From: Naegleria gruberi
Taxonomy: Eukaryota
Direction: 5' to 3' (one strand)
Assembly (NCBI GenBank): GCA_000004985.1
Contig: GG739389.1
Length of the DNA: 1,542 nucleotides
Made by a program: the position numbers and the translations under genes. Each line of letters starts with the position of its first letter. Within the stretch, counting starts at the first letter, position 1. Shown piece after piece: positions 1-1,542 of this stretch. A model generated the notes under the pieces. The model was not told the DNA's origin. It searched no databases and worked only from the letters and a program-made list of their open reading frames with translations.

Positions 1-155
1 CTGAAAAGTGGTGTAGAATCGTGTTGGAAACACCAACATTGACTATCATTATCATAGCCGACAATAACATGAGGAGAAGGATACTTTTCCAATAGGAATT
101 TATAATCAACAAAGGGAGAATCAATCTTTGCGAGAGTGGTCGAAGAAGAGGCCAT
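1..155 (-). CDS. 5' portion of a protein-coding gene, truncated by the window start. Encodes MASSSTTLAKIDSPFVDYKFLLEKYPSPHVIVGYDNDSQCWCFQHDSTPLF... Product unknown.
   Basis: Reverse complement of 1-155 reads ATG GCC TCT TCT TCG ACC ... CTT TTC AG: 51 sense codons with no stop, running off the window edge. The ATG (complement of 153-155) is the first ATG after an in-frame stop (complement of 207-209). Context aatcatataATGG has A at -3 and G at +4, with an A-rich leader (CAAAA repeats). The open length is unlikely by chance at this composition (stop frequency about 7 percent per codon, so P about 0.02 for 50 codons). It is absent from the supplied ORF track, probably because it is partial. No homolog recognised from memory. 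Confidence 0.5.
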   Translation of the reverse strand, partial: MASSSTTLAKIDSPFVDYKFLLEKYPSPHVIVGYDNDSQCWCFQHDSTPLF

Positions 156-162
156 TATATGA

Positions 163-181
163 TTGTTTTGTTTTGTTTTTG
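163..181. repeat. Pentanucleotide microsatellite (TTTTG)n, which is (CAAAA)n on the sense strand of the minus gene. It has about 3.5 units and lies 8-26 bp upstream of that gene's ATG.
   Basis: Direct reading gives ttg ttttg ttttg tttttg, with G at 165, 170, 175 and 181. It sits in the presumptive 5' leader of the minus-strand gene. Confidence 0.7.
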
Positions 182-1258
182 ATGGTATTTCTTGATAAAT
201 TACGAGCTATTTATTTTTAGCATTCAATTCAAAATATTGAATCTTCATAGTAATTGAACCTGACAGTTCCATGTACCATATGGTTACAAATTCTTAGAAA
301 TCGTTGACTTAAAAAAGAGGTGTTATCACTTAACTATTACATGAACCAAGTTTGTGTCCAGAAACAAAAATCTAAAGGACAACAAACACTTTGGAGGTTA
401 AATCTGATGATTCAATTGAAAATGTGAAAAGAAAAGTTATCTTGCCTTGCGATTCAGCACTAAATTTGTTGCCACTACGAACCAACCACTCACTAAATAT
501 CGTCGAGCTGTAATTAGAATACAAGTAAGTGTCCTGTCAGTGGATGTATCTTTGCTAACAAGCAATAATTGTATTATATTATTGAAAACTAACTAATTTA
601 GTTGCGTAAAACTAATAAAAATTTTGATAAATATTTCGAAAAGAAACTTTAAGTAATTAAATGGATTGTATGGTTTTGCATTGTGATTTCGCCAAACCTG
701 ATGAAACGGGTTTCTCATTTTGCTTTGTTTTTAAGCTGGTACCTAATTTACCACAACACCACAATATTTCTTAGGTGTTGAAATAAGATTTCAGGATAAT
801 TGAAAAAAGACTACAGCACCACAGGTTCCCAAGTTGTCTCCAACCTCAGTACTGATGTGGCTCGACGATGCTTAACTTCTCAAATCGGATAGAGGTGCAT
901 TCATCGTGATATGGCCGTAGCCATCCATAACCTCAAAAATATTCTGATAAACAAGCACTGTGGTCCTTGAGGTAAAGTCCATGAAAATGTTGCAAGTTTG
1001 AATAATGAAGTTTCTCCTTTCTAATCAAAATCTGTAATCAACTCAGTCAATTAGAATCACTTCATCTAGCAAAAAACACGAAAAGTGCTCCATTCACTTT
1101 TCCGACTTGATGAAAAAACGTCCTCGTCCTTCTTCCGTGAGTGCGTTCTAACGTTTTTCAACGCAACAACTTGGTGAGCTGCTACAACTACGCACGTTCT
1201 TTTTCGTCATGGTGAAAATCCGAACAATAGAAAAAGACCGTTGGAGTTTTATCTTCAA

Positions 1259-1268
1259 CATAAATATT
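1259..1268 (+). promoter_or_regulatory. Weak TATA-like element (cATAAATAtt), about 125-135 bp upstream of the plus-gene ATG.
   Basis: One mismatch to TATAWAWR at the first position. The spacing to the ATG is compatible with a yeast core promoter. AT-rich context makes chance matches likely. Confidence 0.2.
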
Positions 1269-1301
1269 GGTGAGACTGCATGAAGGAACAAAAACACAAT
1301 C

Positions 1302-1310
1302 AAAAAAAAA
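1302..1310. promoter_or_regulatory. Poly(dA:dT) tract (A9), about 80-90 bp upstream of the plus-gene ATG.
   Basis: caaaaaaaaag at 1301-1311. Homopolymeric dA:dT tracts are established nucleosome-disfavouring promoter elements in yeasts. A role here is inferred from position only. Confidence 0.35.
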
Positions 1311-1391
1311 GACTCAACAACTAATTGTTCTATTGAAGAACTAACAACAACAAGATATCTTGATATCAAAAGAAAACATTAGAAAATAAGA

Positions 1392-1542
1392 ATGAACGCT
1401 GTTATTATTCCATCAAATACTTCTGCTACTCATAAGAAGATGCATGCCAAGAAACATTCACCTCTCTCAGAGAGAAGAACCTTCTCAAGTGAATTAACTG
1501 TCAATTTGACTTCAGATAGAACTGCAATTGCTAATACTGCCA
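1392..1542 (+). CDS. 5' portion of a protein-coding gene, truncated by the window end. Encodes MNAVIIPSNTSATHKKMHAKKHSPLSERRTFSSELTVNLTSDRTAIANTA... (Ser/Thr- and Lys/His-rich N-terminus). Product unknown.
   Basis: ATG at 1392 is preceded by an in-frame TAG (1380-1382) and has the A-rich context aaaataagaATGaac (A at -3). There are 50 open codons to the window end. Codon choice is yeast-like (AGA x3 for Arg, CCA, GCT, ACT x5, TCA x5, TTG/TTA). GC content rises relative to the upstream leader. Not in the supplied ORF track, presumably because it is partial. Confidence 0.55.
   Translation, partial: MNAVIIPSNTSATHKKMHAKKHSPLSERRTFSSELTVNLTSDRTAIANTA

Follow-up and report, generated by a model that had tools for sequence, protein, structure and literature searches.

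A dispersed 5S rRNA gene between the divergent 5′ ends of two protein-coding genes in Naegleria gruberi-group DNA

The 1,542-nucleotide stretch of DNA analysed here (hereafter 'the window') very probably represents nuclear DNA of the Naegleria gruberi group, with three separate transcription units, namely the start of an AAA ATPase gene, a dispersed 5S rRNA gene, and the start of a gene for a conserved 86-amino acid protein. A first-pass annotation made from the same sequence had described a gene, a long promoter and a second gene in succession. The outer parts of that description hold up, in that two genuine divergent gene 5′ ends are present with intergenic DNA between them; its middle part, a single long promoter, does not, since a 5S rRNA gene occupies positions 808..922 on the minus strand.

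Two outward open reading frames at the window edges

Direct translation of both strands recovered the two open, outward-facing frames that had been noted earlier at the window edges. The minus strand from 155 to 1 encodes MASSSTTLAKIDSPFVDYKFLLEKYPSPHVIVGYDNDSQCWCFQHDSTPLF (51 codons; an in-frame TAA precedes the ATG by 18 codons), and the plus strand from 1392 to 1542 encodes MNAVIIPSNTSATHKKMHAKKHSPLSERRTFSSELTVNLTSDRTAIANTA (50 codons; here the in-frame stop lies three codons before the ATG). Reading of the sequence bore out that each frame begins at the first ATG past an in-frame stop and that both ATGs have an A at position −3. The supplied ORF track, which had been said to hold nothing beyond a dubious antisense frame of 73 amino acids, is indeed limited to it: this TTG-started frame, at 1148..1369, is the only closed ORF of at least 60 amino acids in the window. 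We considered and rejected it as a gene, on the grounds of its TTG start, its position inside the promoter and leader of the right gene, the lack of a Pfam match, and the failure of the ORF to be kept in L002 (one of three related loci, L001–L003, used for comparison below).

The window is AT-rich (GC content ranges from 29 to 43% across 200-nt segments), and the edge ORFs could in principle be chance open frames in DNA of that composition. We shuffled the window 5000 times with its dinucleotide composition preserved: outward frames of 50 codons or more with an ATG start ran off the right edge in 2.0% of the shuffles and off the left edge in 3.2%; either ORF taken singly is thus matched in 2–3% of shuffles, but both together appeared in none of the 5000. 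Specific homologues of both edge ORFs also share the same starting methionine, and the right ORF is under purifying selection, as described below. We therefore give scarcely any credence to a chance origin of the frames. Homologues were found for both N-terminal peptides, as the first-pass annotation had proposed to check, although not in the fungi and nematodes that it had named: every named homologue comes from Naegleria (Heterolobosea).

The features assigned to the window, with the basis for each, are as follows.

1..155, minus strand: 5′ end of an AAA ATPase gene, with its start codon at 155..153 and codons 1–45 in frame with homologues (phmmer, tblastn)
163..179: (TTGTT)3.4 microsatellite that appears as AACAA repeats in the leader, directly before the left ATG (Tandem Repeats Finder)
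802..807, minus strand: T6 run directly past the 5S 3′ end, RNA polymerase III terminator (minus strand reads ...GCTGTAGTCTTTTTTC; T-runs as described in PMC3369914)
808..922, minus strand: full-length 5S rRNA gene, 115 nt by Rfam boundaries (RF00001)
830..845, minus strand: box C-like internal control element GGTTGGAGACAACTTG (matches GRTGGGNGWCCNYNNG with 2 mismatches)
870..876, minus strand: box A-like internal control element GTTAAGC (SYYAANC core of the box A consensus, PMC3369914; a short pattern that is not significant alone)
935..943, minus strand: AT-rich, TATA-like stretch AATATTTTT at −13 to −21 of the 5S gene (minus-strand reading; kept in L001)
1100..1391, plus strand: promoter and A-rich 5′ leader of the 86-aa gene (four-way alignment with L001, L002 and L003)
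1236–1244, plus strand: conserved promoter block GACCGTTGG (four-way alignment)
1302–1320, plus strand: conserved promoter block A9+GACTCAACAA (four-way alignment)
1353–1367, plus strand: conserved promoter block AGATATCTTGATATC (four-way alignment)
1392..1542, plus strand: first 50 codons of the gene for a conserved 86-aa protein of a Naegleria-specific family (homology to P0001–P0005, dN/dS)

The right frame begins a small gene under purifying selection

A word-index search identified an 86-amino acid protein from a metagenome contig (P0001) that is 100% identical to the right ORF over 50 amino acids, together with two proteins that are 83% (P0002) and 73% (P0003) identical to the 86-aa protein over its full length. 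A profile of these three sequences detected N. lovaniensis C9374_011883 and N. fowleri FDP41_006539 (E about 1e-16), as well as one more metagenomic member. In an alignment of six sequences (P0001–P0006), all family members have in common the motif KKHSPL(S/F)ERR and a C-terminal H(M/L)SQYYTRDEIEEIYFxW..YIKLYE. The first of these (KKHSPLxERR) corresponds to residues 20–29 of the window peptide, and its columns are invariant or nearly so across the six sequences; the second (SQYYTRDEIEEIYFxW..YIKLYE) is present in P0001 and falls beyond the right edge of the window. The rest of the gene would extend 111 nt past that edge and is predicted to encode ...NPKKIYHMSQYYTRDEIEEIYFEWLATTEYIKLYED followed by a stop codon.

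Three pairwise comparisons of the 86-aa gene gave dN/dS ratios of 0.18, 0.20 and 0.22, and the copies in the window and in L001 are separated by two synonymous and no non-synonymous changes. On these comparisons we identify the right ORF as the 5′ end of a genuine small gene under purifying selection, which is unannotated in the N. gruberi group. No Pfam family matched the 86-aa protein family. An AlphaFold model of the protein is disordered save for one helix at residues 64–77 (pLDDT about 90; pTM 0.29), and the product is probably a disordered binding or regulatory protein.

Comparison of the window with L001–L003 indicated that conservation near the right gene extends upstream no farther than about 290 bp from its ATG. 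Among the blocks within this region, GACCGTTGG is found once per locus in all four sequences, 156–177 nt before the ATG, where 0.01 occurrences would be expected by chance per window. The reverse complement of this block contains CAACGG, the Myb recognition core, which we treat as a lead only.

The left frame begins an AAA ATPase gene

The left peptide found no homologue in a word-index protein search. A phmmer search of 1.84 billion representatives matched it to P0007 (E 7e-19, with 91% identity over amino acids 1–45) and to P0012 (E 1e-4), and a tblastn search onto the window gave 73% identity to amino acids 4–29 of P0012. P0007 is N. gruberi NAEGRDRAFT_76182 (XP_002668895.1). The cluster of P0012 at 90% identity or more includes N. 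fowleri FDP41_006335 (XP_044559574.1), a 491-aa protein that is described as 'ATPase AAA-type core domain-containing protein', contains a Pfam AAA domain (E 1.5e-9; P0014), and weakly matches AFG2, VCP and Cdc48 in a comparison with solved structures. On L001, the same AAA gene adjoins the same 86-aa gene in divergent orientation. Homology to P0007 and P0012, together with this pairing on L001, identifies the left ORF as the N-terminus of an AAA ATPase. The AAA domain itself (PF00004) lies beyond the left edge of the window; the syntenic ORF of L001 has a Pfam AAA match (E 6e-10).

P0007 begins with the first ~190 residues of the AAA protein and continues with the C-terminal 320 residues that the next downstream gene encodes on L001. 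We had considered it as a second deletion variant and abandoned that idea when it proved to be a JGI gene model of N. gruberi. Because it is such a model, the junction between the AAA gene and the downstream gene is most likely a product of gene prediction, and NAEGRDRAFT_76182 is probably a fusion of two genes.

The reading frame of the left AAA gene is interrupted within the window. In the homologues, ...CWCFQ is followed by QRFYTTFQ; in the window, RFYTTFQ (residues 48–54 of P0007) is encoded at 21..1 but in a frame other than that of the ATG at 155. Where CAA CAN CGA TTC would be expected, the window reads CAACA-CGATTC. One base is missing at about positions 21–23, which shifts the final six or seven residues of the left peptide (HDSTPLF) into the wrong frame. 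This one-base loss at codon 46 reflects either a recently disabled gene copy or a sequencing error.

A possible second lesion is seen in L001. This locus is about 99% identical to the window over positions 1071–1542 and aligns with it over 899–1070, where L001 carries three insertions (of 34, 7 and 27 nt). To the left of position 899 the two diverge: all that L001 retains of the 5S gene is its initial 24 nt, and this remnant is joined directly to the AAA ORF at a point equivalent to residue 104. Relative to the window, N. gruberi and N. fowleri, about 1 kb is gone from L001: the 5S gene beyond its 24-nt remnant, the spacer, and AAA codons 1 to ~103. Either a genuine deletion allele or an artefact of assembly could account for this difference. 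Given a frame broken at about 21–23 in the window and a locus without the N-terminal exon in L001, the AAA gene may be non-functional in this lineage.

A rival reading takes the left ORF as the beginning of a pseudogene in decay rather than of a working gene, with the AAA ATPase gene on its way to being lost from this Naegleria lineage by the frameshift here and the ~1-kb deletion in L001. The presence of RFYTTFQ out of frame with its ATG would fit such decay, as would the short 5S remnant and the late start of the AAA ORF in a locus otherwise so close to the window. However, a single missing base equally resembles a sequencing or assembly error, and the junction in L001 could likewise be an assembly or read chimera; moreover, the remaining 380 codons of the L001 AAA ORF are open and 89% identical to N. 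gruberi. We regard ongoing loss of the gene as possible, if somewhat unlikely, and retain the description of the left ORF as the 5′ end of an AAA ATPase gene.

A 5S rRNA gene occupies the centre of the window

The Rfam model RF00001 matched the minus strand at 808..922 with a score of 84.9 bits (gathering score 38; E 2.8e-18), covering model positions 1–120 of 120. No tRNA or other Rfam family was found in the window. The minimum free energy and centroid folds of the 5S sequence both form the canonical three-way junction (−40.5 kcal/mol; z −3.25). In the match to the Rfam model, five consensus positions are absent from helix III and loop C and two adjacent pairs are non-canonical. The signals of a polymerase III gene (box A, box C and the T-run) are all found in this copy, and the box C-like element is the sole match in the window to GRTGGGNGWCCNYNNG at two or fewer mismatches, with 0.09 expected by chance. 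The AT-rich element upstream, AATATTTTT, may serve in a TATA-like role.

N. gruberi has been reported to contain 279 putative 5S genes that are unlinked to the rDNA and are associated with a TATA box, an internal control region and T-runs (PMC3369914). These copies are scattered over most scaffolds and are mostly 117 nt in length, and partial 5S matches are numerous as well (PMC3369914, Table S1); no TFIIIA was found in N. gruberi in the same study (PMC3369914). A length of 117 nt is what the window copy would have with one or two flanking bases included, and a short loop C is therefore probably normal for 5S in the Naegleria lineage. DNA pattern scans of JGI metagenomes and IMG/VR gave no match to this 5S variant, and the fetched Naegleria loci contained no 5S gene. 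A candidate second, inverted 5S pseudogene at ~440–560, suggested by a 15-nt inverted repeat, was rejected when the best 5S alignment to the rest of the window was reached by 39 of 300 shuffles.

The absent loop C and helix III positions and the two adjacent non-canonical pairs raise the question of whether this element is itself a non-functional pseudogene copy, particularly as many partial 5S matches exist in N. gruberi (PMC3369914, Table S1) and as L001 shows that loss of this copy is possible. Set against this are a match over the whole model with a score more than double the gathering value, a canonical three-way-junction fold that is more stable than shuffled sequences, and the intact box A, box C-like elements and T6 terminator; the predominant length of 117 nt among N. 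gruberi 5S genes (PMC3369914) also fits this copy. A 5S pseudogene is, on this balance, decidedly unlikely, and we describe the element as a 5S rRNA gene.

A broader proposal would be that dispersed 5S genes act as breakpoints of structural variation in Naegleria, with L001 as a near-identical environmental haplotype in which the ~1-kb deletion extends from nucleotide 24 of the 5S gene to codon ~104 of the AAA gene, and that the AAA gene is being lost by independent lesions in the N. gruberi complex; a short loop C throughout the lineage would be a separate matter. Taken as a whole we consider it unlikely.

The rest of the centre and the question of a shared promoter

The remainder of the centre, 156..807, has no conserved counterpart in any fetched related locus and contains no credible ORF. 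A GTAAGT...ACTAAC...TAG string is present at 525–601, and an Inr-like TCATA is also found in the window. Together with the AT-rich leader and weak Pfam matches of the neighbouring genes, these features had led us to consider a yeast, trichomonad or microsporidian source, an idea given up when named homologues from Naegleria emerged. A ubiquitin-like stretch at 382–438 on the plus strand (TNTLEVKSDDSIENVKRKV) matched yeast ubiquitin with an E value of 2e-4 in a tblastn search, a value that applies to a tiny search space. We rejected it as a ubiquitin gene: the Pfam ubiquitin model scored 13 bits where 25 are required (E 0.075), the stretch has neither an in-frame ATG nor a C-terminal half, and it is conserved in no locus. 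It is at most an unproven, decayed fragment.

The first-pass annotation had proposed that the centre be read as regulatory DNA. In its fullest form this would mean that the two divergent genes share a single ~1.2-kb promoter, a view that draws on their orientation, on the spacing of their ATGs (1236 bp) and on the promoter-like conservation of the DNA nearest the right gene. That conservation, however, ends about 290 bp from the right ATG, 156..807 is without a counterpart in the fetched loci, and about 1 kb of the proposed promoter is absent from L001. An entire 5S rRNA gene, followed by a terminator of its own, is found at 808..922. The earlier reading had missed this independent RNA polymerase III unit, whose presence in the centre makes the description as one long promoter wrong; a promoter shared across the whole centre is accordingly highly improbable. 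The preferred reading is of three separate units, with conserved upstream DNA confined to the ~290 bp before the right ATG.

Discussion

In the arrangement that we propose, the AAA ATPase gene would be transcribed leftward with its coding sequence starting at 155. The middle unit, also leftward, would be transcribed by RNA polymerase III from 922 to 808, using the box A and box C-like elements and the upstream AT-rich element, and its transcription would end at the T6 run. The 86-aa gene would be expressed rightward, with its coding sequence starting at 1392, from a ~290-bp promoter whose conserved GACCGTTGG box resembles a Myb site, and would yield a mostly disordered product that carries KKHSPLxERR and one C-terminal helix. 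The sequence comparisons establish the identities of the genes, the presence of the 5S gene, purifying selection on the small gene and conservation of its promoter; the actual transcription of these units, the factors that would bind them and the functions of both proteins are inferred.

The main value of the analysis lies in the correction of an annotation. The bacterial-style ORF track misses both edge genes, because both run off the window, and reports a spurious antisense ORF; an ORF-only reading also overlooks the single gene that the window contains in full, an RNA gene. All of the elements are of known kinds, and the points concerning the 86-aa gene and the NAEGRDRAFT_76182 fusion change no biological concept.

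The left ORF and NAEGRDRAFT_76182 have the N-terminus MASSSTTL..KIDS.FVDYKFLLEKYPSPHVI.GYDNDSQCWCFQ in common, and the core of this region (YP.PH.I.GY.NDSQCWCF) is also found in N. fowleri FDP41_006335. At the protein level, the left gene of the window is only 91% identical to the N. gruberi NEG-M gene model, which sets the genome behind this 5S copy apart from NEG-M; unlike NAEGRDRAFT_76182, the window copy lacks one base at codon 46. On the right, C9374_011883 and FDP41_006539 resemble the 86-aa family in both KKHSPL(S/F)ERR and the C-terminal H(M/L)SQYYTRDEIEEIYFxW..T.YIKLYE, but differ from it in their length (116–119 aa), in their long Ser/Thr-rich insertions and in an overall identity of about 48–50%. 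Their loci differ as well, with other neighbouring genes and no 5S gene nearby, and the pairing of the AAA gene with the 86-aa gene is not conserved in N. fowleri or N. lovaniensis.

The head-to-head orientation of the two protein genes is like that seen at bidirectional promoters. Such promoters, however, are typically shorter than 1 kb and have no gene between the two starts, whereas here the ATGs are separated by 1236 bp and a 5S gene, which places the window outside that class; conservation is furthermore confined to the side near the right gene. The 5S gene can be compared with the dispersed 5S genes of N. gruberi by way of their published descriptions. As in those genes, the copy in the window is unlinked to rDNA, is ~117 nt in length, and has an AT-rich, TATA-like upstream stretch, internal control motifs and a T-run terminator; like them, it is a single copy that lies between protein-coding genes.

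A 5S rRNA gene in the window centre and its counterpart in L001

The first-pass annotation, which read the window centre from open reading frames only and took it to be regulatory DNA, holds in part: that reading overlooked a complete 5S rRNA gene.

Features of the window
163–179: (TTGTT)3.4 microsatellite, giving AACAA repeats in the leader directly 5′ of the ATG of the left gene (AAA ATPase)
808–922 (−): 5S rRNA gene, complete
1236–1244: GACCGTTGG box (also at L001 4201–4209, L002 1322–1330 and L003 16–24)

Five consensus positions are absent from loop C/helix III of this 5S gene. 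A published survey found no TFIIIA in the Naegleria gruberi lineage (PMC3369914).

A comparison of window 899–922 with L001 3789–3825 shows that L001, a metagenome contig near-identical to the right part of the window, retains no more of the 5S gene than its first 24 nt, and this fragment abuts codon ∼104 of the AAA gene directly. The alignment points to either a ∼1 kb deletion or a chimera in L001, which lacks the body of the 5S gene as well as the spacer and the N-terminal exon of the AAA gene. In the AAA ORF that remains in L001, the first ATG falls within the 5S fragment.

At 382–438 (+), 12 of the 19 positions of TNTLEVKSDDSIENVKRKV match ubiquitin residues 12–30 (tblastn E 2e-4 with the window as search space; Pfam ubiquitin E 0.075), and the stretch has neither a start codon nor the C-terminal half; its sequence may represent a decayed ubiquitin fragment or a chance match. 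At 525–601 (+), a GTAAGT ... TGCTAAC/AACTAAC ... TAG string resembles a yeast-type intron; it has no supporting exon context, and it is probably a chance occurrence in AT-rich DNA.

The AAA ATPase gene and its models in Naegleria

Relative to its N. gruberi homologue, the left gene is one base short at window 15–30 (−) (CAACA-CGATTC), which shifts its frame from codon 46 and leaves the conserved RFYTTFQ out of frame at 21..1 (−). By comparison with L001 1023–3803, the homologue NAEGRDRAFT_76182 (P0007; annotated at 505 aa) combines residues 1 to ∼190 of the AAA ATPase with the last ∼320 of its neighbour, a 499-aa secreted-type protein, and is probably a model that fuses two genes. On metagenome and Logan contigs the N. 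fowleri AAA gene (L007 1163–2721; P0014) is called as two ORFs of 339 and 127 aa, versus a single 491-aa protein in the NCBI version; this difference implies an intron between residues ∼332 and ∼365.

Spacer and promoter of the 86-aa protein gene

In the spacer that separates the conserved promoter from the region upstream of the 5S gene, L001 (3916–4031) carries three insertions of 34, 7 and 27 nt relative to window 1019–1070, one of which repeats TAATCAAAATC; this spacer is indel-prone and apparently unconstrained. In all close copies of the 86-aa protein gene the GACCGTTGG box is invariant and lies 156–177 nt 5′ of the ATG; the loci of N. fowleri and N. lovaniensis lack it. The reverse complement of the box includes CAACGG, a Myb-type core.
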